This document shows positions 1,555 through 17,478 of a stretch of DNA of 48,030 nucleotides, in pieces. A program made the position numbers and the translations under genes. The notes under the pieces are model-generated. The model ran no database searches and was not told the origin of the DNA. It saw only the letters and a list, made by a program, of their open reading frames with translations. Each line of letters starts with the position of its first letter. The stretch's first letter is position 1. The stretch comes from Desulfobaccales bacterium (GTDB lineage: Bacteria > Desulfobacterota > Desulfobaccia > Desulfobaccales > 0-14-0-80-60-11). The stretch spans positions 1 through 48,030 of the forward strand of contig JBGSLA010000091.1 in the NCBI GenBank assembly GCA_041740935.1, read 5' to 3'.

Positions 1555-2110
1555 CGGTTACAGAAAGCTTTCGCAGACACCGCCCACTCAAACCTGGTGG
1601 CACAGGTTTTCAACCTGTGCCCTTGCACAGGCGAGACGCCTGTGCTACTAATCTCGAGTTTGTGGTTTTTTGACAAAGATTTTGCTTGCAACATGTTAAT
1701 CTTATTAAGAAATCATTCAATTTTATCAGTCTGGTTCCGGCCTTTAGGCCGGGATGTGCCACCAGGCTTTTCATGGTTTGGTAAATACCGGGGCTCATGA
1801 GTAACTGTCCTGAAAAGTTTTTGTGTGGGGGAAGGGGGTTCCCACGGGCAGGATGCCCGTGCCGGGATCGCAGACCCCTGCCCCCTGCCCCGCACCCCCT
1901 CTCCCAACCCCGTGATTCGGGAGCACAGGCAAGATGCCTGCGCTCCCGGGTCATTCCTCTCACGTAGGACCGCAATTCATTGCGCCCACCAAGGGTTCGA
2001 TGAATCGAACCCCTGCATGGTGTTGGGAGGGGAGCCTGGGGGGAAGGGCTGGGGAGCCACCGCTCCTCCGGCTCTCCCCCCAGAGATAAGAAATAACCAG
2101 GCTCATGAGA
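1555..2110 (+). mobile_element. Tandem CTG-cassette repeat locus with REP-like cargo (junction 1768-1820)
   Basis: TTTTCATG...GGCTCATGA-GTAACTG-TCCTGAAAAGT junction; second GGCTCATGAG at 2101; outer boundaries are degenerate and approximate. Confidence 0.6.
1596..1767 (+). repeat. ~170-bp dispersed repeat, copy 1 (copy 2 at 37662-37834)
   Basis: Near-identical direct repeat including ATCTCGAGTTTGTGG...CAAAGATTTTGCTTGCAACATGTTAATCTTATTAAGAAATCATTCAATTTT...GGTTCCGGCCTTTAGGCCGGGATGTGC. Confidence 0.95.
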
Positions 2111-2204
2111 AATTTACTTGAATTTTAGAAACGAATTTAGGATATTTTATAAGTTTAAGCACAGGCTGATTTTCTGCCTGATTTACCGGTAAAGGAGTTG
2201 GAGG

Positions 2205-3395
2205 ATGGCTTCATCCGAATTTCTGTTTACATCTGAGTCGGTCACCGAAGGGCATCCCGACAAGGTGGCGGATCAGATTTCCGACGCCATTTTGGACGCA
2301 ATCATCGGGCAGGACAGATTTGCCCGGGTGGCCTGTGAAACCCTGGTCACCACCGGAATGGCGCTGATCGCCGGGGAGATCACCACCACCGCCCGGGTGG
2401 ACATACCTGATATCGTGCGCCACACCATCAAGGAGATCGGCTATAGCGATTCCTCCATGGGTTTTGATTGGAAAACCTGCGCGGTGCTGGCTTCCCTCGA
2501 CCGCCAGTCCCCGGATATCGCCCAGGGGGTGGAGGGCCGGGGTCTGACGCCGGAGCAGGGGGCCGGCGACCAGGGGCTGATGTTCGGCTATGCCTCTGAT
2601 TCCACGGAAAATTTCATGCCCATGCCCATCTGGTACGCCCACCGCCTGGCCGAACGTCTGGCCAAGGTGCGCAAGGACAAGACCCTGCCCTTTCTGCGTC
2701 CGGACGGCAAGACCCAGGTGACCGTGCGCTATGAAGACTATATTCCCAAGGATATCCATACCATAGTCATCGCGGCGCAGCACGAGCCTGACGTTCAGTA
2801 CCAGGACCTCAAGGAAGCCATTGTGGAGGAGGTCATCAAAAAGACCATCCCGGCTCAATTACTCAACAACACCAAGTACCTGGTCAATACCACCGGAAAA
2901 TTTGTGGTGGGCGGCCCCCTGGCCGACTGCGGCATGACCGGCCGCAAAATCATCGTGGATACCTACGGCGGCCGGGGCTACCACGGCGGCGGGGCCTTCT
3001 CGGGCAAGGACCCCACCAAGGTGGACCGCACCACGTCCTACATGCTGCGGCACGTGGCCAAGAACGTGGTGGCGGCCGGGCTGGCCCGGCGCTGCGAGGT
3101 CCAGGTGGCCTACTCCATCGGCCTACCGGACCCCCTGTCCATCATGATTTATACCTACGGTACCAATAATATCCCGGATGACCGCATCCTGGAGATCATC
3201 AAAGAAACCTTCAGCTTCAAACCCGCGGCCATGATCCAGTATCTGGACATGCAGCGCCCCATATTCAAAAAAACTGCGGCTTACGGTCACTTCGGGCGCA
3301 CCGACCCGGACTTTACCTGGGAATACACCAATAAAGTGGAAATCCTGCGGGAAAAGGCAGGGCTGAACCCCGTCTGCCCGGTATGCGAAAAGTAA
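2205..3395 (+). CDS. metK: S-adenosylmethionine synthetase
   Basis: [45 protein letters not shown]; GGAG RBS. Confidence 0.99.
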
Positions 3396-4670
<1,275 letters not shown>

Positions 4671-4707
4671 GATCGATTTTTTTCACCCAAGCAGGTAGGG
4701 ATTTCCC

Positions 4708-6129
4708 ATGATCAACATAAAATTCGGCACCTCCGGCTGGCGGGGGATTCTGGCGGAGGATTTCACCTTTGCCAATGCCCGTCTGGTCTGCCAGGCCATT
4801 GCCGACTATCTCAAGCAGGAAGGCCTGGCCGACAAAGGGGTGATCGTGGCCTATGACACCCGCTTTCTGTCGGAGACCTTTGCGGCCACCGCGGCGGAAG
4901 TCATGGCCGGCAACGGCATCCCGGCCTTTTACACCATCCGGGACACCCCCACTCCGGTGGTGAGCTTTGCCATCCGGAAGGCCCTGCGGGGCGGCGGCAT
5001 CAACATCACCGCCAGCCACAACCCGGCGGAGTGGAATGGCATAAAATTTTCTCCCGCCCAGGGGGGCCCCGCTCCCACCCCGGTTACGGCCGCCATCGAG
5101 GGGTTCATCCGGGAAATATCCCCGGCCGACGTCAAAAGCATCCCTTTTGCCGAAGCCCGGGACCGGGGTCTGGTCGCCGATATTGATCCCCGGGGGAGCT
5201 ATTTCGATCATCTGCGCAAGCTGGTGGACGTCAAAACCCTGGGGCAGTCCGGCCTCAAAGTGGCGGTGGACGTCATGTTCGGCACCGGCCGGGATTACCT
5301 CGACGCCTTTCTCCGGGAGGCCGGGGTGGAGGTCGAGGTGCTGCATGGCTACCGGGACCCCCTGTTCGGGGGGCAGCGCCCCGAGCCCAGCGGCGAGTAT
5401 CTGAACCCCCTGGCCGAGCGCATCCGGGAAACCGGGGCGCATCTCGGTCTGGCGGTGGACGCCGACGCCGACCGCTTCGGGGTCATGGACGGCCAGGGCC
5501 GCTACCATGAAGCCAACATGATCCTGGGGTTGTTGTTCGACCATCTCATCAAGACCCGGGGCTGGGAAGGCGGCGTGGCCCGCAGCGTGGCCACCAGCCA
5601 TCTGGTGGACAAAGTGGCCGCGGCCTACGGGCGGCCTGTGTTTGAGACCAAAGTGGGCTTCAAGTTCCTGGGCGAGTACATCCTCTCTGAACAGGCCCTG
5701 ATGGTTGGGGAAGAAAGCGAAGGCTTTTCCATGCGGGGGCACCTGCCGGAAAAGGACGGCATCCTGGCCTGCCTGCTGGTGGCCGAGATGGTGGCCAAAA
5801 CCGGGAAGGGCATCCCGGCGCTCCTGGACGACCTGTTTGCCCGGGTGGGGCCGGTGCACACCCAGCGCCTCAACCTGAGCCTGACCCCCGAAGTCAAGGT
5901 GCGCCTGTTGGAGCGTCTGCAGACCACTCCCGACCGGTTTGCCGGCCTCAAGGTGGTGGGGCACGTCACCATTGACGGCCACAAGTATCTCCTGGAAAAC
6001 GGCAGTTGGGTGTGCTTCCGGCCCTCGGGCACCGAGCCTGTGGTGCGCTTTTATCTGGAGGCCTCCACCGAGGCAGAACTGGAGAAGCTGCGCCTGGCCG
6101 GCGGCGCCCTGTTGAGGGAATTATTGTAG
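4708..6129 (+). CDS. Phosphoglucomutase/phosphomannomutase family protein
   Basis: FGTSGWRG, TASHNP catalytic Ser, DADADR metal loop, GEES, RPSGTEP. Confidence 0.95.
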   Translation: MINIKFGTSGWRGILAEDFTFANARLVCQAIADYLKQEGLADKGVIVAYDTRFLSETFAATAAEVMAGNGIPAFYTIRDTPTPVVSFAIRKALRGGGINITASHNPAEWNGIKFSPAQGGPAPTPVTAAIEGFIREISPADVKSIPFAEARDRGLVADIDPRGSYFDHLRKLVDVKTLGQSGLKVAVDVMFGTGRDYLDAFLREAGVEVEVLHGYRDPLFGGQRPEPSGEYLNPLAERIRETGAHLGLAVDADADRFGVMDGQGRYHEANMILGLLFDHLIKTRGWEGGVARSVATSHLVDKVAAAYGRPVFETKVGFKFLGEYILSEQALMVGEESEGFSMRGHLPEKDGILACLLVAEMVAKTGKGIPALLDDLFARVGPVHTQRLNLSLTPEVKVRLLERLQTTPDRFAGLKVVGHVTIDGHKYLLENGSWVCFRPSGTEPVVRFYLEASTEAELEKLRLAGGALLRELL

Positions 6130-6136
6130 AAAATTT

Positions 6137-6766
6137 ATGAATTTTGCCTCGCTCCTCGAAATGAGCCTCATGGCGGTGGTGCTGGTATTTTCGGTCATCG
6201 TCCATGAAGTGGCCCACGGGTATGTGGCCTGGCTGAACGGCGATCCCACCGCCCGCCTGGCCGGCCGCATCACCCTCAATCCCCTCCCCCATATCGACCC
6301 CATCGGCACCATCCTTCTGCCCCTGCTGCTTCTGGTGACCCATGCCGGGATCATCTTCGGCTGGGCCAAACCGGTGCCGGTGAATCCCTCCTATTTCCGC
6401 AACATCCGCTGGGGGGAGGTCACCTGCAGCTTTGCCGGCCCTGCCAGCAACCTGATTTTGGCGGCGATCTTTGCCTATGTCCTGCGCCTCAACCTGGGGG
6501 GGCCGGGTCTGGTCCTGTTGGCCTACTATGGCTGCACCATCAACATCTTTCTGGCCCTGTTTAACCTGATTCCCATCCCGCCCCTGGACGGCTCCCACCT
6601 GGTGGCCGCGTTTCTCCCCTATCGTCTGCTGCAGTATTACCGGTATCTGGAACCCTTCGGCTTTGTCATCATCATTCTCCTGTTTTACACGGGTCTCATG
6701 GGCATCATCCTCATGCCCATTTATCGCCAGATAGCCGCCTTGCTCCAGGTGCCCGTGGTGTTCTGA
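6137..6766 (+). CDS. Site-2 protease (M50 family membrane zinc metalloprotease)
   Basis: HEVAH, AGPASN, FNLIPIPPLDG; hydrophobic helices. Confidence 0.95.
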   Translation: MNFASLLEMSLMAVVLVFSVIVHEVAHGYVAWLNGDPTARLAGRITLNPLPHIDPIGTILLPLLLLVTHAGIIFGWAKPVPVNPSYFRNIRWGEVTCSFAGPASNLILAAIFAYVLRLNLGGPGLVLLAYYGCTINIFLALFNLIPIPPLDGSHLVAAFLPYRLLQYYRYLEPFGFVIIILLFYTGLMGIILMPIYRQIAALLQVPVVF

Positions 6767-6938
6767 AAAGCTTCAGACCCAAGTCAGCCGCTTTCCCCGC
6801 AATTGCGTCTTTTCCCCCACTGCCGGAATATGTTATGTTGTGAGGTGTGATACGAGTTTCTCATTGAAATGAGCCACATGAAACGCATAGCATAGTGATT
6901 TCCCTATTTTTTTCCGAAAACCGAAAAACGACCGCCAT

Positions 6939-8714
6939 ATGAAGTGGAAGAACAAAGTCGGGCCTAAGCTCCTGGGGGTCAATCTGCTGTCTCTGTTGGT
7001 GGCTTTGGTGGGACTTTTGCTTCTCATGCAGTTTTTGGCCACCCGCCTGATTTTGGAATGGCACCGCCAAAGGGTGGAGTTGGTGGCCCGCCTGGTCCTG
7101 GCGGAATACCGGGGCAAGCTTCAGCAGGTGGTCCAGGCCGCGTCGCTTCTGGCCGGCAATCTCACTTATGGGGAGCTTCTGGCCGCGGGGGACATGAATA
7201 CCCTGAGGGCCTTGATTACCCCCTTGCTCAAGGCCACCGGCCTTCAGGTCCTGACCATCACGGACCAAAACGGCGTGATCCAGGCGCGCCTCCACGAACC
7301 GGGGGGTATTGGGGTCAATATCAGCGTCAACCCGGTGGTGCGGGCCGGACTGGCTGGCAAGCCCGCCAGCCAGATGACCCAGTGGCAGGACAGCATTTCC
7401 CTGAGCGCCGCGGCCCCCCTGTTCCAGCAGGATCGCCTGGTGGGGGTGGTTCTGGCGGGTGTGCTCATCGACAAGAGCTTTGTGGATTCCCTGTCGCCGC
7501 CGGGGGTGGAAGTTGCCATCTTTTTCGGCAACCGCCTGGTGGTCAACTCCTTCAAAGACCTGCCCAAACCGGCCATGGCCGATCTGATGCAGGCGGTGGA
7601 GGCGGCGGGGCGCAGCGACGCCGGCAACGACGGAGTTCAGCGGCTCCACCTGGGAAATCAGGACTACACCGTCACCTATCTGCCCCTGGGGGAAAAGGAC
7701 AAACCCTGGGAAAATCTCATTTTGGTGGGGTTAAACCGGCGGGAGTTGGACCAGACCCTCACCACCTTAAAATTGATTATTTTCGGGGTGGGCCTGGCCG
7801 CTGCCCTGGTGGGGGCCTTTCTCAGCGTCTGGCTGTCCACGGGCATGCGCCGCCAGATCGCCTTCCTCACCGAGGGCACCCGCCAGGCGGCCAGGGAAGA
7901 GCTGGCCGGGGATATCCCGGTGACCAGTCAGGATGAGCTGGGCGAGCTGGCCGAGTCCTTCAACGCCATGACCCAGGCCTTGCGGGAAAAAACCCGGCAG
8001 CTGCAGGCGGAGCGGGATCGCATCGCGGCCAACGCCGACTTTTTGTCCATGATCGTCCACGACATCAAGGCCCCTCTGACCGGATTGCGGCTTTCGGTGG
8101 AGGCCCTGGAAGACATGACCCTGCCGCCCGCCACCCATCAAAAGCTCAAGGGCATTATCCAGCGGAGTGAGGGCTTGCTCCTGCATCTGCACAATGTCCT
8201 GTATCTCAGCCGGTTCGAGTCGGGACTCCTGGCCCTGCGGCCCGAGGCGGTGCCGCCGGCCTTCCTGGTCCGGCGGCTGCTGCACCATTTCAGCCCCTTG
8301 GCCCAACATCAGGAAGTGGCCATGACCTCGGCCCTCAGTCCGGATTTGCCCCCCGTCCGGGTGGATGAGCCCTCCCTGGAGCGGGTGCTGGCCAACCTCC
8401 TGGTGAACGCCCTGGAGGCCACGCCCCCCGGTGGGGCCATTACCGTTAAGGGCGGCCTCCTGGCAGGCGGCGGCCACCCGGAGGTGGAGCTGGTGGTGGC
8501 CGACACCGGCCCGGGCATCTCCCCGGAAGATCAGCAGGCCCTTTTTGAGAAATACCGGCAGCGCTCCCACCAGGCCAACGGCTCGGGACTGGGGCTCTAT
8601 ATCTGCAAAACCCTGATGGAGGCCAACGGCGGGCGCATCTGGGTGGAAAGCGCTCCCGGCCAGGGCGCCCGGTTCCACCTGGCCCTGCCCATTGCCGCGG
8701 GGGAAAACGGTTGA
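6939..8714 (+). CDS. Membrane sensor histidine kinase (Cache-like, HAMP, HisKA, HATPase)
   Basis: Two TM segments, DELGELAESFNAM HAMP, HDIKAPL H-box, NLLVNA, DTGPGI, GSGLGL. Confidence 0.95.
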   Translation: MKWKNKVGPKLLGVNLLSLLVALVGLLLLMQFLATRLILEWHRQRVELVARLVLAEYRGKLQQVVQAASLLAGNLTYGELLAAGDMNTLRALITPLLKATGLQVLTITDQNGVIQARLHEPGGIGVNISVNPVVRAGLAGKPASQMTQWQDSISLSAAAPLFQQDRLVGVVLAGVLIDKSFVDSLSPPGVEVAIFFGNRLVVNSFKDLPKPAMADLMQAVEAAGRSDAGNDGVQRLHLGNQDYTVTYLPLGEKDKPWENLILVGLNRRELDQTLTTLKLIIFGVGLAAALVGAFLSVWLSTGMRRQIAFLTEGTRQAAREELAGDIPVTSQDELGELAESFNAMTQALREKTRQLQAERDRIAANADFLSMIVHDIKAPLTGLRLSVEALEDMTLPPATHQKLKGIIQRSEGLLLHLHNVLYLSRFESGLLALRPEAVPPAFLVRRLLHHFSPLAQHQEVAMTSALSPDLPPVRVDEPSLERVLANLLVNALEATPPGGAITVKGGLLAGGGHPEVELVVADTGPGISPEDQQALFEKYRQRSHQANGSGLGLYICKTLMEANGGRIWVESAPGQGARFHLALPIAAGENG

Positions 8715-8729
8715 GGCTGGTTTTTTTGA

Positions 8730-8946
8730 CTGTCCTGAAAAGGTTCCTCTTATTCTGGTTCCCAAGCTCCGCTTGGGAACCCACTTGCCCGCCAAGCTCT
8801 GCTTGGCCCCGCCTTGCCAGCCCCCAATAAAGGGGGTTGGGAGGGGGGCCTGGGGGTGGGGGGTGGGGGAGCCACTTCCCCTTAGCCCTCCCCCCAGAAG
8901 GACTTTTCATGCTTTGCGGGTGGGCCAAAGGCCCATGAGGAGCTGT
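8730..8946 (+). mobile_element. Single CTG-cassette with palindromic cargo
   Basis: CTG-TCCTGAAAAGG left end; cargo GGTTCCCAAGCTCCGCTTGGGAACC plus a G/C-run palindrome; right end TTTTCATGCTTTGCGGGTGGGCCAAAGGCCCATGA-GGAG-CTG. Confidence 0.7.
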
Positions 8947-8969
8947 TGCTGTCAATTTAAAGGCGGACC

Positions 8970-9341
8970 ATGAACCCCTGGATTCTAGTCATCGATGACG
9001 ACCCCGGCACCCGGGAAGCCCTGGCCGAGATTCTCGGCCGGGCGGGATACCGCGCGGCCGCCTGGGCTGATGATGCACCCCTCGGGGACCCGCCTCTCGA
9101 TCACCCCTACCGGGTGGCGGTGGTGGATTACCACCTGCCTGCCGGCAATGGGCTGGAGGTGGCCGCCCGCCTCAAGGGCCTTCAACCCGACTGCCGCATC
9201 ATCCTGACCTCCTCCGAACTCCCGGCCGCGGCCGGGCTGTCCGCCGCCGAAGGGGTGGTGGATCGGTTCCTGGCCAAGCCCTTTGCCAAAGATGTTCTCC
9301 TGGAGGTGGTGGCCCGGTTGTGTCACCCCGAGACCCCTTGA
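8970..9341 (+). CDS. Single-domain response regulator (receiver)
   Basis: ILVIDDD, VVDYHLP phospho-Asp, LTS, FLAKPF. Confidence 0.9.
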   Translation: MNPWILVIDDDPGTREALAEILGRAGYRAAAWADDAPLGDPPLDHPYRVAVVDYHLPAGNGLEVAARLKGLQPDCRIILTSSELPAAAGLSAAEGVVDRFLAKPFAKDVLLEVVARLCHPETP

Positions 9342-10822
9342 GTCCGCCCCGCTTCGCCCCGGCCGACCCCGGCCGGCTGCCCTCGGACATCCGCCGCTAT
9401 GCCCTGGAAGAAGGGCTTTTCGCGCCGGGGGGGCGGGTCCTGGCCGCGGTTTCCGGCGGGCCCGACTCCGTGGCTATGCTGCATTTGCTCCACCGCCTGG
9501 GGCCTGAATGGGGCCTTACCCTGGGGGTGGCCCATTTCGATCATGGGCTCAGGGGGGAGGCCTCCAGGGGGGAGGCCCGCTTTGTGGCCGAACTGGCCCA
9601 AACCCTGGGGCTGCCTTTTTATGGCGGCGAAGGGGACGTCCGCCGGGCGGCCCGGACATACAAGGTTTCCCTGCAGATGGCCGCCCGGCGGCTGCGTCTG
9701 GATTTTCTCCTAAAGGTGCGGCAGGAACAGAGCTACCACCGGCTGGCCCTGGGGCACACCGCGGACGACCAGGTGGAGCTTTTTTTTCTGCGCCTTTTGA
9801 GGGGGGCCGGCGCCGAGGGACTGAAGGGCATGTGGCCCCGCACCCCCGAAGGCCTGGTGCGGCCGCTTCTGGCCGTGGCCAAGGACGCGGTGCTGGCCTG
9901 GCTCCGCCACGAAGACCTCGCTTATCGGGAAGACCAAAGCAACCTGAGCCGCCGCTACCTGCGCAACCGGGTGCGCCTGGAGCTGGTGCCCGGCCTGCAG
10001 CGGGACTTTAACCCCCGAATCAAAGACGCCGTCTGGCGGCTCATGGCCCTCCTCCAGGAGGATGAGGCCTTCCTCAACCAGGCTGCGGCTGAGGCCTGGG
10101 GCGCGGTGGGGCGCTTTATCACCCCGCACTGCGCCGCCCTAACCATTCCCGCCTGGCTGGCCCTGCCCCCGGCCCTCAGGACGCGCCTGGTGCGCCGCAC
10201 CCTGGGCCGCTTTCTGGCCCATCAGGAAATCACCTCGTCCCAAGTTAGCAGTTTGTTGGCCCTGGCCCAGGGGCAAAGAAGCGGCGGCGTGATTGACTTT
10301 GGGACCTGCCGGGTGGCCCGGGCCGGGGCGGAGCTGCATTTTTTCCCCCCTCTGCCGCCTGCCCCGGAGGCGTCTGCCACCCTGCTGCCGGGAACTGGAG
10401 CGGTGGAGTCCCCGGCCGGCTGGCGTCTCGAGGCGGGAAGCCTCGCCGGGCCCCTTCCGGGGCCGGGGCCGGATTTCCCCCATATTGTCCGGGTGGATCA
10501 GGACAAAACCGCCTTTCCCCTGATGCTGCGCGGTGTGCAGCCGGGGGACCGCTTCCGGCCGACCGGGGGGAAGGGGGCCAAAAAAATGCAGGATTTTCTG
10601 GTGGACGCCAAAATCCCCCGGTGGCTTAGGCCGCACCTGCCCCTGGTGGCCGACCGCCAGGGCCTTATCTGGGTCCCCGGCCTGCGCCTGGCTGAGGCGG
10701 TCACACCCACGCCCCGGACCGTCAGGGTATTGGAACTTGCCATCTCCCCGATCGACGCCGGCGCCGCCAAGGTTTGGGAATTTCTCCTGGCCATAACCGG
10801 CCAAGCCCCCCATCCGGCATGA
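9320..10822 (+). CDS. tilS: tRNA(Ile)-lysidine synthetase
   Basis: AVSGGPDS PP-loop, HFDHGLR, GHTADDQ, RNRVR, C-terminal GDRF...KKMQDFLVDAKIP. Confidence 0.96.
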   Translation: MSPRDPLSPPRFAPADPGRLPSDIRRYALEEGLFAPGGRVLAAVSGGPDSVAMLHLLHRLGPEWGLTLGVAHFDHGLRGEASRGEARFVAELAQTLGLPFYGGEGDVRRAARTYKVSLQMAARRLRLDFLLKVRQEQSYHRLALGHTADDQVELFFLRLLRGAGAEGLKGMWPRTPEGLVRPLLAVAKDAVLAWLRHEDLAYREDQSNLSRRYLRNRVRLELVPGLQRDFNPRIKDAVWRLMALLQEDEAFLNQAAAEAWGAVGRFITPHCAALTIPAWLALPPALRTRLVRRTLGRFLAHQEITSSQVSSLLALAQGQRSGGVIDFGTCRVARAGAELHFFPPLPPAPEASATLLPGTGAVESPAGWRLEAGSLAGPLPGPGPDFPHIVRVDQDKTAFPLMLRGVQPGDRFRPTGGKGAKKMQDFLVDAKIPRWLRPHLPLVADRQGLIWVPGLRLAEAVTPTPRTVRVLELAISPIDAGAAKVWEFLLAITGQAPHPA

Positions 10823-12144
10823 CCTCTGAGCCGCCGCGCCTGTTGCTCATCAATCCCTGGATCTATGATGTGGCAGCCTATGACTTTTTTGCCCGGCCGA
10901 TGGGGCTGTTGTATCTGGCTGGTTTTCTCGGAGCCCAAGGTTTTTCGATCCGCCTGATTGACTGCCTGGCCGCGCCCCACGCCCGCAGCGGCCCCTTCGG
11001 CACCGGCCGCTATGCCAAACAAATCCTGCCTACGCCCCCGGCCCTGGCCGGCTTCCCCCGGCGCTACGGCCGCTACGGCATCTCTGAGGCCGCCTTCAAG
11101 GCAGAACTGGCCGACACCCCCCGCCCCGCCGCCATCCTGGTCACCTCTCTCATGACCTACTGGTATCCGGGGGTGGCCGCGGCCATCCGCCTGGCCCGAA
11201 AGCAGTTTCCAGATACCCCGGTGCTTCTGGGAGGCGTCTATGCCACCTTGTGCCCCGACCACGCCCGCGGCCACAGCGGCGCCGACCTGGTGATCACCGG
11301 GCCGGGGGAGGAGGCTATCCTGCAGCATCTGACCGCCGTTGTCGGCCATTCCCAGCCACCCTCGACCTCTCCCGATCCCGACGCTCTCCCCTATCCGGCC
11401 CTGCACCTGGCCCGGGGGCTCAGCTTCATCCCGGTGCTCACCTCCCGGGGCTGCCCCTTTGCCTGCGACTATTGCGCCTCCCGTCTGGTGGCGCCCCGCT
11501 ATCAGCGGCGCCTTCCTCTGGCGGTGGTGGAGGAACTTTTACACTGGCAGCAACGCCTCAATATCACCGAGGTGGCCTTCTACGACGACGCCCTGCTGGT
11601 TGACCCAGAACAGCACCTTTTGGTCATTCTGGAAGAACTGGCCCGCCGGGGCGCAGACTTTCGCTTCCACACCCCCAACGGCCTGCACGCCCGGTTCATC
11701 ACGCCGCAGGTGGCCCGCTGGCTGAAGCGGGCCGGTTTCGCCACCCTGCGCCTGGGGGTGGAGACCGCCGGGCCGGACACCGAGCGCCTGGACCAGAAAC
11801 TGGCCGAGGGGGAACTGGAAGCCGTGCTGCGCCATCTCCAGGAAGCCGGCTTCAGCCAAAAACAGTTGGGGGTCTATCTTCTCATCGGCCTGCCTTATCA
11901 GGACGACGCGGAAGTGGCCGGGTCCATCCGTCGGGTCAGGGAACTGGGGGCCACGCCGGTTTTGGCCCTCTACTCCCCCATCCCCGGCACCGCGCTCTGG
12001 CCCCGGGCCCTGGCCGCCTCCCCCTGCGACCTGGAAGGCGAACCCCTGTACCACAACAACTCCCTGTTCCCCTGCTGGCCCGCCTTCTCCTGGGAGCGCT
12101 ACACCCGCTTGAAACGCCTGGCCCAGGGGTTGGAAGTGTGTTAG
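10819..12144 (+). CDS. B12-binding domain radical SAM protein
   Basis: LLINPWIYD N-terminus, TSRGCPFACDYC CxxxCxxC, FYDDA, TPNGLH; ATG overlaps the tilS stop (ATGA). Confidence 0.92.
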   Translation: MTSEPPRLLLINPWIYDVAAYDFFARPMGLLYLAGFLGAQGFSIRLIDCLAAPHARSGPFGTGRYAKQILPTPPALAGFPRRYGRYGISEAAFKAELADTPRPAAILVTSLMTYWYPGVAAAIRLARKQFPDTPVLLGGVYATLCPDHARGHSGADLVITGPGEEAILQHLTAVVGHSQPPSTSPDPDALPYPALHLARGLSFIPVLTSRGCPFACDYCASRLVAPRYQRRLPLAVVEELLHWQQRLNITEVAFYDDALLVDPEQHLLVILEELARRGADFRFHTPNGLHARFITPQVARWLKRAGFATLRLGVETAGPDTERLDQKLAEGELEAVLRHLQEAGFSQKQLGVYLLIGLPYQDDAEVAGSIRRVRELGATPVLALYSPIPGTALWPRALAASPCDLEGEPLYHNNSLFPCWPAFSWERYTRLKRLAQGLEVC

Positions 12145-12145
12145 G

Positions 12146-12330
12146 ATGGTGGCGGAGGGCCGGGGAACGAAGTCCCCCCGCCTTCCCCCACACACCCTTC
12201 AAACCCTCTGTGTAGGGGCGGACCCGTTTGTCCGCCCTGGATTTAGGCCGCACACGCGGGTGCGCCCCTACGTGGATTGGGGGAGGGGGATTGGGGGAGG
12301 GGCTCGCCCCTTAGCCCCCTCCCCCCAACA
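12146..12330. repeat. REP-like palindrome cluster (GTAG doublet and G/C-run palindromes)
   Basis: GTAGGGGCGGACCCGTTTGTCCGCCC ... GGCCGCACACGCGGGTGCGCCCCTAC; TTGGGGGAGGGGG...CCCCCTCCCCCCAA. Confidence 0.8.
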
Positions 12331-12350
12331 ATTCGAATCCACCAATCACT

Positions 12351-13061
12351 ATGGGAACTTCAACAGCGCGGCGGGGGCCAGGCACCGCGGTTTGGCGGCT
12401 GGCCAAGGCCGCGGCCACCCGGTATCTGTCCCCGGAGGGCGGGGCCCCCATGAAGGCCCGGGAGGTGGTGCGCCGCTATGTCGCCGCCCTGGAAGATACT
12501 CAGGTTTCCCAGGGCCAGGACCTGTCGGCGGGGTTTCGTCTCACCCGCAAGGCGGCCCAATGTCTGGGGGAATTCGGCGACGCCGCGGCTGCCTCAGGGT
12601 TGGCGGCGGTGCTGGCCGCCTGGGGCCTGGCAGAGGCGGCCCGGTCTTCCCCCGAGGCGGCCGCTCTGGTCCTGGCCGCGGCCTGGGTGGAGGATGATGG
12701 AGGTCTCGAGGCCGCAGTGGCCCGAAGCGCGCTGGCAAAGGCTCTGAATCAGGTTTTGATTTCCGGGACCGACAACGCCTCCCTCCCGGACGGCCCTTCC
12801 CTGGTCCAGGCCTTTTTTGCCCATGCTCTGCACCAGCGCCTGGTCCTGGACCTGGGCGAATGCCTGGAGGCGGCCGCGCCCGGCTGGACGGAATTCAAAG
12901 CCGGGTTGGCGCGGCTGGCGGACGACATAAGCGCCACCGGGGCCGGGGCGGTTCCGGTGACCCCTCCCCCGGCCGGGCATTGGCAGGGCCTGGCCGGCTG
13001 GGTTTATGTCACCAAGCTCCTCGAACATCTGTGCCAGGGCCTGAAAAAGAATGATTCTTGA
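12351..13061 (+). CDS. qatB: QatB-like protein
   Basis: MGTS N-terminus; KAAATRY, GGLEAAVARSAL and FFAHALHQRLVLDLG segments resemble QatB as I recall it; directly upstream of a QatC-like gene. Confidence 0.8.
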   Translation: MGTSTARRGPGTAVWRLAKAAATRYLSPEGGAPMKAREVVRRYVAALEDTQVSQGQDLSAGFRLTRKAAQCLGEFGDAAAASGLAAVLAAWGLAEAARSSPEAAALVLAAAWVEDDGGLEAAVARSALAKALNQVLISGTDNASLPDGPSLVQAFFAHALHQRLVLDLGECLEAAAPGWTEFKAGLARLADDISATGAGAVPVTPPPAGHWQGLAGWVYVTKLLEHLCQGLKKNDS

Positions 13062-13187
13062 GCCTCTTACACAATGTAGCCGCAGGCTTCAGCCTGCGCT
13101 GGCACAAGCTTTCCAGCCTGTGCCAGCGGGGAATGATTTCTCTGTCATGAAAAACGCGCCTCTCTGGATGAATTTTGCAAGAGGCTC
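13060..13187. mobile_element. MITE with GAGCCTCTT(A/G)CA terminal inverted repeats, copy 1
   Basis: GAGCCTCTTACA...TGCAAGAGGCTC ends; internal REP-like GTAGCCGCAGGCTTCAGCCTGCG. Confidence 0.75.
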
Positions 13188-13306
13188 TTCATTTTCGAAA
13201 TCTTTAATGTGGAGCAGGCGCCCTCGCCTGTTCGTCAAAAGAACAGCCGGCCGCAGCTGTTCTACATTTTGGGCTTCCTTATAATTTAGAGACCGCGCTC
13301 AAAAGA

Positions 13307-14698
13307 ATGACACCTCTTAAGGTCAAAACGAACAGAAAAGGCGGTTCCCCACCGAGACCTTTCTGGCTGCACCTCAAGGCCCCGGGAGAACGCCGCCGCC
13401 CTCCCCCAAAGGCTGACGCAGTGGTTCACCTTGAAGGGCCGCAGACCCCAGGCCTTTGTCTCCACCATAACTTTCGCGACCTCTGGCCCCTGCCTGCTGA
13501 CCAGAAAGACCAGGTTTTGGGGTTTCTCCTGTTCGCCCTGGGAGCCTGGAGTGCGGACAAACTGTCCCCCCGGCGGGCCCAACCGGACGCCTGGTCCCGG
13601 GAATTCGTGGTGGATCTCCCCGTCACCCCCGCCTGGGCCAATCTCGCCCCGGAGATGGCCTCCCTGCTCAATTTCCTCACCGGCGACGCCTGGACCATCA
13701 AACCCCGGGAAGCCAGGATTGATTTAGAATTCGTGGAAATCTGGCCTCACCCCTGGCAGCCCACCGCCGCGGCCCTGTTTTCCGGCGGGCTGGATTCCCT
13801 CATCGGCGCCATCGATCTTTTGGAGCAGGGCCACCGCCTGGTCCTGGTCAGCCACTATGACTATGGGCAGCTGGCCGCGGGCCAACAATCCCTGGCCGCG
13901 GGGCTCATCCGGCATTACGGCCCGGAGCGTCTGGTTCACCTGGCCCTCAGGGTCCAGTTCGAGGGTCCCGAACTCACCCTGCGGAGCCGCTCTCTCCTGT
14001 ATGTGGCCCTGGGCTTGACTGCGGTCAGCGCCTTTCCCGGAAGCCTGCCCCTTTTCATCCCCGAAAACGGCTGGATCAGCCTCAATCCGCCGCTCACCCT
14101 GAACCGCCTCGGGGCCTACAGCACCCGCACCACGCACCCCCATTTTATGAAAGGCTTGGCGGCCCTTTGGCGGCAGGCCGGGCTTTCCCAGGAACTGCAC
14201 AATCCTTACGGAGAGATGACCAAGGGGGAGATGGCGGCCCGCTGCGCCAATCCGGGGCTGCTGGAGAAGCTGGCCCCCCTGAGCCTCTCCTGCGCCCGGC
14301 CGGTGGCGGGCCGTTGGCAAAAAGAGCCCGCCGGGGCCTGCGGCTATTGCTACCCCTGTCTGGTGCGCCGGGCGGCGCTGCACCGCCTGGGGTGGGACCG
14401 GGGCGGGGATTACCGGGTGGATGTTTTGGCCGGCCCTGAAATGCTGCGCCATCGGGTCAAGGGGCGCCATCTCCGGGCGGTCTGCCTGGCCCTGAAAACC
14501 TGGCAGGAAAATCCCCGGGGGCTCCTGGCGCGGCTGCACCTGGGCCGGGGGGAACCCCAGGAACTTGCGGCTCAGACCAGTGCGGCCACACGGGTTCTTA
14601 AGGCCGGCCTGGCCGAACTGGAGGCCTGGATCAGGGAGCAGGGGAAAGGGGTAATCGAGGACTTCCTCGGGGAGAAGGGCGGATTTGTCGAGGCATAA
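13307..14698 (+). CDS. qatC: QueC-like protein of Qat type
   Basis: LFSGGLDSLIGAIDLL PP-loop, LVSH, RSRS, ENGWISLNPPL...STRTTHP, TKGEM, SC...CGYCYPCLVRRAA Zn site; 463 aa, much longer than canonical QueC. Confidence 0.9.
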   Translation: MTPLKVKTNRKGGSPPRPFWLHLKAPGERRRPPPKADAVVHLEGPQTPGLCLHHNFRDLWPLPADQKDQVLGFLLFALGAWSADKLSPRRAQPDAWSREFVVDLPVTPAWANLAPEMASLLNFLTGDAWTIKPREARIDLEFVEIWPHPWQPTAAALFSGGLDSLIGAIDLLEQGHRLVLVSHYDYGQLAAGQQSLAAGLIRHYGPERLVHLALRVQFEGPELTLRSRSLLYVALGLTAVSAFPGSLPLFIPENGWISLNPPLTLNRLGAYSTRTTHPHFMKGLAALWRQAGLSQELHNPYGEMTKGEMAARCANPGLLEKLAPLSLSCARPVAGRWQKEPAGACGYCYPCLVRRAALHRLGWDRGGDYRVDVLAGPEMLRHRVKGRHLRAVCLALKTWQENPRGLLARLHLGRGEPQELAAQTSAATRVLKAGLAELEAWIREQGKGVIEDFLGEKGGFVEA

Positions 14699-14754
14699 TC
14701 GGAGCGGGCCTCTCGCCCGCTGCGGGATATCCACCTGCCCGGCAGGAAAATTTC

Positions 14755-15189
14755 CTGTCTTGAAAAGTCCCCCGTAGGGCGCGTCTTACGCGCCGCAAAA
14801 TGGTGCGTGAGACGCACCCTACAGAGCTTTGACGCCAATCAGACGATGTTTGGCGGCGGGCAGTGCCCGCCCTACGCGAGTTTTCATGCTTTGCGGGTGA
14901 GCCGTAGGCTCATGAGAAACTGTGATGAAAAGTTTTTTTTGTGGGCGAGGGGGTTCCCACGGGCTGGAAGCCCGTGCTACCGGGGTTGGGAGGCCTTTGC
15001 AGCTTTCCCCACGCCCCCTTCCCCACCCCCTGAACCGGGAGCACTGGCTTTGTGCCTGTGCGGCACAGGCAAGATGCCTGTGGTCCCGGTTTAAAAACAA
15101 GGTCCGGGGGGCCAGCACCACTCCCCCGGCCCTCCCCCCAGATCTCTTTTTCATGCTTTGCGGGTGAGTCGGAGGCCCATGAAGACCTG
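14755..15189 (+). mobile_element. Two tandem CTG-cassettes with different REP cargo (junction 14881-14932)
   Basis: CTG-TCTTGAAAAGT [GTAG REPs] TTTTCATGCTTTGCGGGTGAGCCGTAGGCTCATGA-GAAA-CTG-TGATGAAAAGT [cargo] TTTTCATGCTTTGCGGGTGAGTCGGAGGCCCATGA-AGAC-CTG. Confidence 0.8.
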
Positions 15190-15209
15190 TTCCTGTGGGG
15201 AAATTCCTC

Positions 15210-15240
15210 AAAAAAAAGCCCCCCTGTACCAGGAAGGCTT
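15210..15240 (-). terminator. Intrinsic terminator after the tadG-like gene
   Basis: Minus strand AAGCCTTCCTG-GTA-CAGGGGGGCTT stem (G-U pairs) followed by a U run. Confidence 0.75.
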
Positions 15241-15285
15241 GGGGTTCCGGATGGGGATTTCCCCCACCCGGGTTGTGGATTCGGA

Positions 15286-16626
15286 TTATTTAACCAGATA
15301 GGGCACCGACGCGAAGTTCCCCACATTGCTGGCGGAGGGGTTCATGTCCTGATAGCTCCGCTCCACCGGGGTGGGCTTGGCGCTCTGGTCGTAAGACACA
15401 AAGTTTTGGTTTAAAGGGACTTCCACCTGCATGTAGCACTTCTGGTAGCAGCTGCGGTTATCCGGATAGGCGTAATTTTTGCAGGTGGTGTCCCAGGCGC
15501 CGTCGCCGTTGTAATCACAGAGCACTTTCTTGATGTCCAGGGTGACAAAGCCCTGGACCCAGACCGCGGGTGAGGTGTAGGAGGCGCAGGCGTAGGCCGC
15601 GGTCGGTCCCGGCAGCAGGCGCTGGGCCAGCTTCAGCCAGGAGTTGGGGGTGGGCGCCGCGGCCAGCGGGTTGGAGGTGCCGTACACCGCCACGGTGACG
15701 CGCCACTTGCCGGTGGCCGGGTCTTTTTCGGCGTTGAACCGGTTTTTCATGTAATTGAAGTTGTCATACACGTTGCTGGCCCAGCGGTACTCACTGATGG
15801 GGTACACTTTCTGGCCGGTTTGCACCTGGGGATAGCGCAGTCCTCCCAGGTCCTGCCCCTTGATGTACTTCTGGAGCTTGCTGAGGTCAGTGCGCTCTCC
15901 GTACAGGGGCATGATGAAGGTGCCCCGGGAGGTGTCCAGGGTGTCGCCGCCCAGGTCCTTCCAGGTGTAGGGCTGGGGGTCGGCGGCGATGGCCGGCCGG
16001 GGCAGCAGCCAATCCAGCAAAGGATTGGTGCGGACGTACGGGGACTGCCCCGCCGGGTAGTTGGCGGGCACCCCGAAGGGGACGGACAGGGAACTGGTCC
16101 CGGCGAGCCCCAGATAGGCCACCGCGGTGGCCGCGGTGTTCATGGTGGCACTGCCGCCCACCATGCTGCCGAAGGTGGCGCCGAGGCTGGGATTATCCGT
16201 GCCGTCCCGGCGCACCGTGACCTGGATGGCGGTCACATCCATGGGATTGGCGGAGCAGCCGGTGCGGGTAAAGGTGCCCGTGGTGAGATTCCACTGTCCC
16301 ACGGTGACGTCGGCCCCGGTGACCGTCATGGCGGCCCCGGAGGACTGGTTCTCCGCGGCAATGGCCTGGGCCGTGGTTATGGCCTCGCTGCAATACACTG
16401 CGGCCAGACCCGGGTTGGCGGGATCCTTAGCCTGTATGAGCTTTTTGGCCCCGGCCAGTGCCGCGGCGTCGGCGACGTTCTGGAGCTCGTTTTTCCCCAC
16501 AAACAGCTGCCCCAAATCGACCGTCAGAGCCATTAATCCCAAAGCCATGGCCATACTTACGGCCAGGATGGGAGTAATGGCGCCTCTCTCCTGGGGAGAG
16601 CCGCGGCAGGTTCGAGTTTTCAGCAT
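15286..16626 (-). CDS. TadG-like Flp pilus assembly protein
   Basis: ERGAI prepilin-like cleavage site, TM helix, VDLG...ELQNVADAAALAGA; Cys-rich C-terminus; GGAGG RBS. Confidence 0.88.
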   Translation of the reverse strand: MLKTRTCRGSPQERGAITPILAVSMAMALGLMALTVDLGQLFVGKNELQNVADAAALAGAKKLIQAKDPANPGLAAVYCSEAITTAQAIAAENQSSGAAMTVTGADVTVGQWNLTTGTFTRTGCSANPMDVTAIQVTVRRDGTDNPSLGATFGSMVGGSATMNTAATAVAYLGLAGTSSLSVPFGVPANYPAGQSPYVRTNPLLDWLLPRPAIAADPQPYTWKDLGGDTLDTSRGTFIMPLYGERTDLSKLQKYIKGQDLGGLRYPQVQTGQKVYPISEYRWASNVYDNFNYMKNRFNAEKDPATGKWRVTVAVYGTSNPLAAAPTPNSWLKLAQRLLPGPTAAYACASYTSPAVWVQGFVTLDIKKVLCDYNGDGAWDTTCKNYAYPDNRSCYQKCYMQVEVPLNQNFVSYDQSAKPTPVERSYQDMNPSASNVGNFASVPYLVK

Positions 16627-16689
16627 ACGCTTAACCTCCTTGGCGATATGAGTTTAAGCCCGGGGAGCTGTGCTGCGCCTCCCGGGTCC

Positions 16690-17202
16690 CTAAGGGCTTG
16701 GCGCCGTGGACCACTCGGCTGCCATGCTCGTTTGGGCATCCAGTAGAATAACGTTGTCCCCCGAAGTGCGGGGCACCCCCACCAAAGCCTTGGCGCTGGG
16801 CAGCAGCAGGAGCTGACAGGGAATTTGGTTAAGGTTGACGGTCAGGACGGTGCCCGAGGCGGTGGTGGTCCAGTCGTAGGTAAAATTGCCGCTGTTCAGG
16901 ACCAGATTGCTGCCGTCCAGGTTCTTGAGGGCGAACTGGTTCAGGTAATTCTGCACCACCGTTTTCACTTCGGATTGGGTCATGTCCGCGGTCACGGCGG
17001 TACCGGTGTCCACGGCCTTGGCTGCGGCCCTGGCCCCCTCCCGGGCGGCGTTGGTGATGACGTGCTTCTCCCAGAACAACATCCCCAGGTCAAAAACCCC
17101 GGCGACCAGCAGGAGAAACACCGGTATAGCCAGGGCCATTTCCACCGTGATATTGCCCTGTTCCCGGTGGTTCCGGGGGCCGCTGAGCCTGTTGATTCGC
17201 AT
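16690..17202 (-). CDS. TadE-like pseudopilin
   Basis: QGNITVEMAL (G/xxxxE) motif, TM helix, NAAREGAR; start placed at ATG 17202 after a GAAGGGG RBS. Confidence 0.9.
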   Translation of the reverse strand: MRINRLSGPRNHREQGNITVEMALAIPVFLLLVAGVFDLGMLFWEKHVITNAAREGARAAAKAVDTGTAVTADMTQSEVKTVVQNYLNQFALKNLDGSNLVLNSGNFTYDWTTTASGTVLTVNLNQIPCQLLLLPSAKALVGVPRTSGDNVILLDAQTSMAAEWSTAPSP

Positions 17203-17478
17203 GGCTGTCCCCTTCATAACCAAGAAATCGCGCCGGTCTTGGTCCTGCCGGCAAAAACCCTGGCGGCCGGGTGTGGTCCAGGCCGCCAGCGGTTTCCCCG
17301 GACCACGCCCCGCCTCGCCGGTCAAGCCCCGTGGGGGGGAAGTCCGGCTCGTCCTGGAAAAAAGAAGCAATGAGCGTGCCACCCCCGGCTGAGGGTTCGT
17401 CCGTCCGGGAGAAGAATCACCGGGGCGCCAAAGGCAGGTCGACAAGGGGAGGTGCAAGGGGGAGGGCTGGGAAGCTTA

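Follow-up and report, generated by a model that had tools for sequence, protein, structure and literature searches.

Known Qat systems and the locus under study

Canonical Qat anti-phage systems are encoded by the four genes qatABCD, and QatB and QatC of Pseudomonas aeruginosa and Escherichia coli have been solved as complexes (9y01/9y02, 9zee/9zef and 9vlk/9vll; PMC13279940, PMC13376578, PMC13639016). In these 1:1 complexes the N-terminus of QatB, from Gly2, lies inside the active site of QatC, and the substitution G2D, deletions in the tail, mutations of the PP-loop and mutations of the Thr-x-Thr site all abolish Qat defence (PMC13279940, PMC13376578, PMC13639016). QatBC alone protects against lambda-vir and P1 (PMC13279940, PMC13434339). 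We looked at a stretch of 48,030 nucleotides from a Desulfobaccales bacterium (contig JBGSLA010000091.1, positions 1 to 48,030, hereafter the window), in which a qatB and a qatC gene follow each other between 12351 and 14698, in the same order as in canonical systems, with neither qatA nor qatD. We consider, with a probability of roughly 55%, that this is a functional QatBC pair which was placed downstream of a radical SAM (rSAM) gene in the ancestor of the order, which never had qatA and qatD or has lost them, and which has been inherited vertically since. Laboratory truncations had shown that QatBC is the functional core of Qat; this lineage, which has relied on QatBC alone throughout the history of its order, provides a natural experiment.

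Two other kinds of QueC-family enzymes are related to QatC. The first is Cap9 of type IV CBASS (cyclic oligonucleotide-based antiphage signalling system). Its preprint (bioRxiv 10.1101/2025.04.06.647259) describes, as here, a QueC-family enzyme and a partner with a conserved N-terminal Met-Gly, and the chemistry proposed there on Gly2 is that proposed for QatBC. Cap9 has about 185 aa and keeps the Tyr/Asp nucleobase site of QueC (PMC13329287), whereas the enzyme of the window is a 463-aa protein of the QatC type with Thr-x-Thr; likewise, the CBASS partner is a nucleotidyltransferase, whereas the partner found here is a helical QatB. Neither a CD-NTase (cGAS/DncV-like nucleotidyltransferase) nor Cap10 was found among the open reading frames (ORFs) of the window, the rest of the genome not having been searched for CD-NTase. 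The second is canonical QueC (PF06508 / TIGR00364), which shares with QatC the PP-loop fold and the Zn-cysteine cluster. The catalytic motifs of QueC are, however, absent from QatC, and a queC deletion is not complemented by the E. coli enzyme (PMC13329287). A true QueC is encoded separately in the genome studied here, beside QueE on contig C9 (163.8 bits vs a cut-off of 150.3). The attachment of a deazaguanine to the N-terminal Gly of a partner protein, which the first-pass annotation of the window had given as reported for both Cap9 and QatC, is firm for CBASS Cap9. For QatC, the published evidence is one NDG-modified GTSKAY peptide, detected at low yield by liquid chromatography-tandem mass spectrometry (LC-MS/MS) in one group (PMC13639016), and two groups could not reconstitute the QatC reaction (PMC13279940; PMC13376578).

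The features of the locus are the following.

12351..13061, + strand: qatB, 236 aa, starting MGTSTARRGP; an all-helical QatB with about 12 residues before the ordered domain
12351..12386, + strand: N-terminal tail of QatB, M1-T12, in which Gly2 is the presumed acceptor once Met1 is removed
13062..13306, + strand: qatB-qatC spacer, 245 bp, AT-richer, as read directly from the sequence
13307..14698, + strand: qatC, 463 aa, a QueC-like PP-loop enzyme with QatC-type N- and C-terminal extensions
13781..13798, + strand: PP-loop SGGLDS of QatC, S159-S164
14120..14140, + strand: STRTTHP motif of QatC, S272-P278, in which two Thr replace the Tyr/Asp nucleobase-binding residues of QueC/Cap9
14291..14371, + strand: Zn-site of QatC, C329, C345, C348 and C351, followed by R354 R355
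10774..12144, + strand: B12-binding rSAM gene, the upstream neighbour (Pfam B12-binding plus Radical_SAM)

QatC of the window carries the motifs of canonical QatC

QatC scored 325.2 bits against NCBIfam NF041925, above the curated equivalog cut-off of 280, and 323.3 bits against the PADLOC QatC model (PDLC02214), over profile positions 41-446 of 453. With phmmer, it matched the solved QatC chains 9zee_B and 9vlk_A at an E-value of about 1e-57. Its residues 74-410 align with 65-419 of 9zee_B, with QatC-type extensions flanking the QueC core, and the match to the QueC family PF06508 itself is weak (29.3 bits). Identity to canonical QatC is 33-38%.

To look at the motifs, we aligned 22 QatC sequences, 18 orthologues from the clade of the window and four from complete qatABCD loci. 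The residues invariant in all 22 are those of the PP-loop (S159-S164), R226/R228 (RxR), E253/G255 (ExG), S272-T273-R274-T275-H277-P278 within STRTTHP, K306 (TKG), the four cysteines 329/345/348/351, R354/R355 and Y369. The motif D84(x)4R89...W96xR98 is invariant as well. The threonines T273/T275 align to T278/T280 of P. aeruginosa QatC, and the cysteines align to the Zn cysteines of solved QatC. The role of Thr-x-Thr in place of the Tyr/Asp nucleobase site of QueC and Cap9 is taken from PMC13279940. The enzyme thus shares with canonical QatC its domain layout, PP-loop, Thr-x-Thr site, Zn site and extensions. As for its start, the open frame offers no start codon ahead of the conserved region other than ATG 13307, and the 18-residue N-terminal extension that begins there is common to the genus.

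The 236-residue protein is a distant but true QatB

The upstream protein is less easily recognized. QatB of the window scored 36 bits against NCBIfam NF041924, below the cut-off of 100, and 20.6 bits against the PADLOC QatB model, and among solved structures the lone sequence gave only a chance match (phmmer, E 0.11). The low NCBIfam score is a limit of the model, since the QatB of a full qatABCD locus from another family of the same phylum (L060, described below) also fails it (49.9 bits vs 100). Among 8000 candidates scored from a public database, 293 relatives were found at E up to 0.001; in the best 120 of these 293, the Pfam annotation precomputed by the source assigns PF28083, named QatB, to the product of the window and to most homologues. 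A family profile (A1) built from 68 homologue sequences matched QatB in two solved QatBC complexes (chain 9vll_A, E 4.8e-10; chain 9zee_A, E 8.1e-8). When the family was compared by hhalign with five QatB from complete qatABCD loci, the probability was 98.6% (E 5.5e-16, 228 columns).

The predicted structure pointed in the same direction. The AlphaFold2 model of QatB (pLDDT 92.7, pTM 0.90) has ten main helices and a four-residue turn in the tail, with a pLDDT of 60 for residues 1-10. The top two Foldseek matches were the QatB chains 9y01_A and 9y02_A (TM-scores 0.59/0.63, the next being 0.15), at an E-value of 3e-3 that lies just above the 0.001 line of the tool. VIA-align gave Z-scores of 17.5 for 9y01_A and 17.0 for 9y02_A, with a root-mean-square deviation of 3.4 over 204 and 200 residues, respectively, and 4.4 for the next, unrelated entry. 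The ten-helix fold of QatB has no other known structural relatives. By family profile and by predicted fold, the 236-aa MGTS protein is therefore a distant but true QatB, which shares both the fold and the MGTS N-terminus with canonical QatB.

Conservation is strong in the N-terminal tail and next to it: M1, G2, T3, S4, R7, P10, W15, A18 and K19 are invariant in 68/68 homologues, out of 19 QatB residues invariant in total, and a MGTS start is present in 14/14 ORFs extracted from the loci of relatives. Moreover, the first 28 codons of qatB vary within the genus mostly by synonymous changes (nonsynonymous over synonymous divergence, dN/dS, of 0.076/0.464 and 0.056/0.550). Conservation and coding signature together indicate that the MGTS start is translated and is no upstream artefact. 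The public gene call begins at Met34 (203 aa), with a GGAGG about 10 nt 5' of the Met34 ATG, and therefore drops the conserved MGTS tail; misannotation of QatB start sites has been warned of (PMC13279940). Ahead of the MGTS ATG, members of this genus show no clear ribosome-binding site, whereas the sister family has AAGGAGG-type sites at this position. Altogether, the two ORFs that the first-pass annotation had reported, a 236-aa protein starting MGTS and a 463-aa QueC-like enzyme, are both real and correctly placed, its identification of an orphan qatB and qatC was right, and the SGGLDS, STRTTHP and Zn-cysteine motifs and the Gly of M-G-T-S on which it had relied are all conserved.

QatA and QatD in the genome and in the order

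Next, we searched for the missing partners. A Pfam scan of the ORFs of the window revealed no KAP ATPase and no TatD, as the first-pass annotation had stated for these 48 kb. It had gone on to propose a split Qat system, with QatA and QatD encoded elsewhere and acting in trans. The source genome is a draft of 275 contigs, 96.7% complete, which leaves some room for this explanation, and two TatD-family genes do exist in it, on contigs C191 and C2. However, QatA (NF041923) had no match in a profile search of the whole assembly. The two TatD genes scored 100 and 94 bits against QatD models, vs a cut-off of 230, and reached 261 and 171 bits with the general YchF/TatD family, which fits them better; in addition, the QatD model gave matches at this low level in 13 of 14 control genomes. 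From their scores, both are ordinary housekeeping genes. At the scale of the order, QatA was above its cut-off in one of 61 genomes, 11 others giving only weak KAP-type matches of 80 bits or less, and QatD was likewise above its cut-off in one. The only genome in which both exceed their cut-offs is G015, which carries an extra, canonical qatABCD. With this, a system split over the genome becomes extremely improbable. The locus thus differs from canonical qatABCD in that qatA and qatD are found neither in the genome nor, this one exception aside, in the order.

Distribution, descent and selection of the pair

In the sources, close homologues bear names that suggest Desulfobaccales / Desulfobacca, as do 59 related loci in their titles. 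QatC was matched in 38 of 41 relatives, with 24/24 in the family of the window, 13/14 in the sister family and 0/2 in other families of the phylum, its identity being 66-73% in the genus, 53-60% in the family and 46-52% in the sister family. In the larger set it was found in 58 of the 61 genomes of the order (54 above cut-off) and in all 17 of its genera. Outside the order it is rare: in a sample of 301 genomes of the phylum, QatC was present in 11/11 genomes of the order vs 8/290 others (19/301 overall), and the five QatC loci tested outside the clade all have QatA within about 2 kb.

In a QatC tree, the sequences of the order form one clade (support 99) in which monophyly is supported for family f1 (100) and for each of the five genera represented by at least two members (99-100). 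The second QatC of G015, which belongs to its canonical qatABCD, falls among the outgroups, outside the clade of the order. Within the genus, the NG86 dN/dS was 0.23-0.28 for QatC and 0.34 for QatB, vs neighbour values of 0.33 (TilS), 0.21 (rSAM gene) and 0.16 (kinase). All of these values are rough, dS being 0.6-1.0 and, at 0.85-1.0, near saturation. The pair thus evolves much as the neighbouring housekeeping genes do, with no relaxation of selection, and relatives carry no complete qatABCD at this position. Since the tree is congruent with taxonomy, these sequence data point to a single ancestral acquisition followed by vertical descent under purifying selection.

We also looked for signs of mobility. 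No mobile genes were seen in the window, and none of the 122 candidate stretches from viral contigs held a QatB of the clade. Searches of QatC against viral sequences gave only two weak matches, to Listeria phages, at 25.7% identity. QatC is carried by 121 plasmid records, all below 60% identity (the best listed being 41%) and annotated as canonical qatC. As for base composition, GC is 0.60-0.70 at the pair vs 0.54-0.70 over the window, and GC at third codon positions (GC3) is 0.77 for both qatB and qatC vs 0.78-0.85 for the neighbours, which bears out the host-like GC noted at first reading. Canonical Qat is patchy and mobile; the chromosomal, vertically inherited and near-universal pattern found in this order is the opposite.

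Losses and interrupted copies

QatC was not found in three of the 61 genomes, namely G333, G342 and G036. QatB is also missing from two of them, G333 (95% complete) and G036 (81%), and G342 keeps it. In G015, the only genome of the order sample with canonical qatABCD, a 14.6-kb insert of 35-45% GC (locus L143, about 1750-16380) interrupts the resident qatC at about residue 185-188. The insert encodes a 610-aa large serine recombinase at the junction, a portal-like DUF4055 protein, a tail terminator and a DnaT-like protein. A phage may use the conserved qatC as attachment site in this genome. Given the losses in the order and the prophage-like insert of G015, the pair is not essential. This fits an immune role and makes an indispensable housekeeping one less likely. 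Finally, copies with frameshifts or stop codons were seen for qatB in G002 and G016 and for qatC in G001 and G018. In these draft assemblies they could be sequencing errors or real decay.

Such copies, the prophage insertion and the absence of qatA and qatD raise the question whether the pair is a remnant of a former qatABCD, left to drift towards loss once qatA and qatD had gone. In the window, however, both ORFs are intact with every catalytic motif, and dN/dS, although only roughly estimated, is far from 1. The pair has been kept in 58/61 genomes and 17 genera, and the invariant QatB residues and the strongly constrained N-terminal tail are likewise not those of a drifting gene. We regard decay as very improbable.

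Proposed activity and role of the pair

QueE and QueC are encoded on contig C9, as mentioned above, and QueD-type genes on C202 and C270. With this host QueD/QueE pathway present, 7-carboxy-7-deazaguanine (CDG) would be available. From the intact catalytic elements, the acceptor motif and this supply of CDG, we infer an ATP-dependent ligation to Gly2 of QatB. The sequence of events could be as follows. The pair would have entered the chromosome of the common ancestor of the order just downstream of the housekeeping rSAM gene, either without qatA and qatD or with a later loss of both. Once Met1 of QatB is removed, QatC would bind QatB and, with ATP at its PP-loop, activate a carboxylate substrate by adenylation, most likely CDG from the QueD/QueE pathway of the host, and would then transfer the activated carboxylate to the alpha-amine of Gly2. 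The tagged QatBC would restrict some phages without QatA and QatD, in the manner of the truncated operons of E. coli and P. aeruginosa, and would represent resident chromosomal immunity rather than a mobile island. By analogy with these operons, QatA/QatD-independent immunity would be the most likely role of the pair. Both the modification of Gly2 by QatC and the reach of Gly2 to the active site with a tail of 12 residues are putative.

Several observations speak against this functional QatBC pair. The first concerns the tail, which has about 12 residues here vs 30-90 in published QatB (PMC13279940). The ordered domain begins at residue 13, aligned with residue 64 of 9y01_A, and the short tail is common to 68/68 family members, with no tail insertions. 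The second is the interface. In E. coli and P. aeruginosa, an electrostatic QatB-QatC interface is essential for binding (PMC13376578), and the basic patch of QatC (R405/R408/R412/K419 in E. coli, R407/R410/R414 in P. aeruginosa) is not conserved here: by sequence alignment only, R405/R408/R412 of E. coli correspond to T398/E401/G405, and in the clade these columns are mostly T, E/Q and E/D. On the other side, the acidic E162/D166 of canonical QatB align to K130/Q134, and position 134 is K or R in 30/68 sequences. This hints at a swapped-charge interface in the clade. The third is the conserved acidic residue of QatC called D63 (PMC13329287), which, mapped by motif spacing, is G72 here, 12 positions before D(x)4R. 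This position is G/N/A/S/K in 18/18 QatC of the clade and D/D/D/E in the four canonical ones, and no primary data on D63 were found in three structural papers.

The loose linkage of the two genes, in the fourth place, is unusual for a defence operon. We examined 59 further QatB loci, of which 52 have downstream room and 46 upstream room. In 33 of the 52, QatC abuts qatB; in 11 it follows downstream after 0.7-4.2 kb, and in 8 the flank examined contains no QatC, so that the two genes are non-adjacent in 19/52. In some genomes they are even on different contigs or 385 kb apart, whereas in canonical Qat systems such unlinking is not the pattern. Fifth, in vitro tests of E. coli QatC showed no stimulation by CDG (PMC13376578), which makes the first substrate uncertain. 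To these points are added the frameshifted copies and the near-saturated dS values described above.

Some of these differences, namely the short tail and the loss of the basic patch and of the D63-type residue, amount to a clade-specific rewiring that would also suit a domesticated, non-immune module, in which the N-terminal tagging of QatB has taken on a regulatory or structural function and phage defence has been given up. The near-universal presence in the order vs 8/290 genomes elsewhere in the phylum, the strict vertical descent, the dN/dS close to that of TilS and of the rSAM neighbour, the housekeeping surroundings without defence genes and the retention of both genes even when unlinked all agree with such a module. 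Against it, members of the order can do without the pair: no QatC was found in 3/61 genomes, two of these lack QatB as well, and G015 has its resident qatC cut by a prophage-like insert with a canonical qatABCD elsewhere in the genome. Furthermore, the pair is not accompanied by any conserved third partner or target gene, and published assays already show defence by QatBC alone. We consider domestication possible but rather unlikely. In the same tentative way, the order-fixed, non-mobile QatBC might be a standing cellular N-terminal tagging system that is no longer triggered by phage, with a rewired interface (basic and acidic patches lost or swapped), a substrate tail shortened to 12 residues and no nuclease or ATPase as partner; it would then be the first case in which a protein-nucleobase (or related) conjugation enzyme of defence origin has been domesticated to serve the host. 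A domesticated module with a different output had been suggested at first reading. The long vertical inheritance under purifying selection that we found fits the first half of that suggestion, and a different output is not required, because QatBC alone has been published as defending against lambda-vir and P1.

With the functional QatBC pair retained as our preferred reading, the locus is a natural, fixed, order-wide variant of Qat devoid of QatA and QatD, the parts of which, as well as the sufficiency of the pair, had already been published. In the literature searched (main texts), no description of a natural qatBC-only lineage was found. The survey of 631 QatD-seeded clusters in PMC13434339 distinguishes seven forms, none of them qatBC-only, and in PMC13329287 qatA and qatD lie beside only about 34% of the QatC cluster, with no comment there. 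The lineage indicates that the two-gene core of Qat can persist alone in nature, and offers a test of whether a defence core becomes a stable chromosomal fixture or is domesticated. With its dozens of diverged orthologue pairs, it is also a rich source of co-variation data on the QatB-QatC interface and the tail, and a minimal, short-tailed QatB substrate may ease biochemical reconstitution. Such pairs will escape annotation rules that ask for all of qatABCD or for a QatB above the NCBIfam cut-off.

Organization and neighbourhood of the locus

In many relatives qatB and qatC directly abut or overlap, unlike the genes of this locus with their 245-bp spacer. In the spacer, a TATAAT can be read directly at 13280-13285, 22 nt 5' of the qatC ATG. 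A consensus scan of 11900-15400, spacer included, gave no complete sigma-70-type promoter, and terminator-like sites were no commoner in this interval than in shuffled sequences (6 vs 5.3).

The other ORFs of the window encode S-adenosylmethionine synthetase, S-adenosylhomocysteine hydrolase, a two-component pair, TilS, the B12-binding rSAM protein, Tad pilins, penicillin-binding proteins, fumarase and others. Among the 32 ORFs other than the pair, PADLOC defence families gave no match except an unrelated one to a flavin-binding N-terminal domain, in agreement with the earlier remark that there is no defence island.

The rSAM gene is a conserved upstream neighbour. The order rSAM-qatB-qatC is contiguous in 12/20 loci of relatives, across both families of the order, with TilS upstream of it only in the family of the window. 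Among the QatB loci with upstream room, the rSAM gene is directly upstream of qatB in 36/46. In five genomes with a lone QatC, QatB is still present in 5/5 and rSAM in 4/5, and G007 and G019 have kept rSAM-qatB together while qatC sits elsewhere. The longest ORF of the rSAM gene overlaps the end of tilS by 49 nt, and its true start is probably later; its best NCBIfam match is 74 bits, far under any cut-off. The adjacency in both families, and its survival after qatC had moved away, could mean that the three genes are one unit, in which the rSAM enzyme makes or alters the substrate of QatC or modifies QatB. But a single-copy rSAM orthologue (40-52% identity) is found in 164/301 genomes of the phylum, with variable neighbours, vs 19/301 for QatC, and at the loci examined outside the order neither QatB nor QatC lies beside it (8/8). 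Moreover, G016 keeps QatC without a detectable rSAM gene, and canonical Qat systems have no such gene. Since the rSAM gene is widespread in the phylum without QatB or QatC at its side, we take it as the landmark of an ancestral insertion site, which explains the adjacency; a three-gene unit is improbable.

Directly downstream of the pair, on the opposite strand (15286-17457, -), are TadG-like and TadE-like pilus genes, which lie beside qatC in 1/20 loci. An intergenic repeat resembling repetitive extragenic palindromes (REP) or miniature inverted-repeat transposable elements (MITE) occurs in the window at 8862-8952, 14878-14923 and 15106-15196, with a related hairpin at 12279-12325. Its 19-nt core is present in 175 copies in the genome (90 forward and 85 reverse; a reversed-pattern control gave 0). 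We considered the flanking repeats as the ends of a mobile element and rejected this, the core occurring 175 times genome-wide. The repeat is not specific to qatBC, because copies lie between the kinase and regulator genes as well as, twice, downstream of qatC.

Other Qat-like loci

The complete qatABCD of L060 comes from genome G223, of another family of the same phylum, and has, like the locus of the window, a short-tailed QatB (241 aa, starting MGTSTSYDAPTTW). At 1808-7954 of this locus, QatA scored 373 bits (below its cut-off of 600) and QatD 241.9 bits (above), with a tyrosine recombinase alongside. Its QatC is 35% identical to that of the window and falls outside the clade of the order. 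With QatA and QatB of L060 both below their cut-offs, the curated models under-call divergent Qat systems.

The source genome also holds a second, different QatC-like system on contig C24 (locus L066; ORFs at 6579-8468, 8458-9240, 9288-10655, 3634-6243 and 11258-12397, all on the - strand). It comprises a 629-aa QatC-like enzyme (198.8 bits against NF041925, below the cut-off) that overlaps a 260-aa protein starting MGHIRLGRLPRTVKW, flanked by proteins of 455 aa and 869 aa without a family. With a GC3 of 0.49-0.67 and a tyrosine recombinase alongside, it looks like part of a mobile island. The Met-Gly-His partner has no detectable homology to QatB (hhalign 5.9% and 0.05%), and it is conserved in two other genomes (L068 and L069, 40-46% identity).

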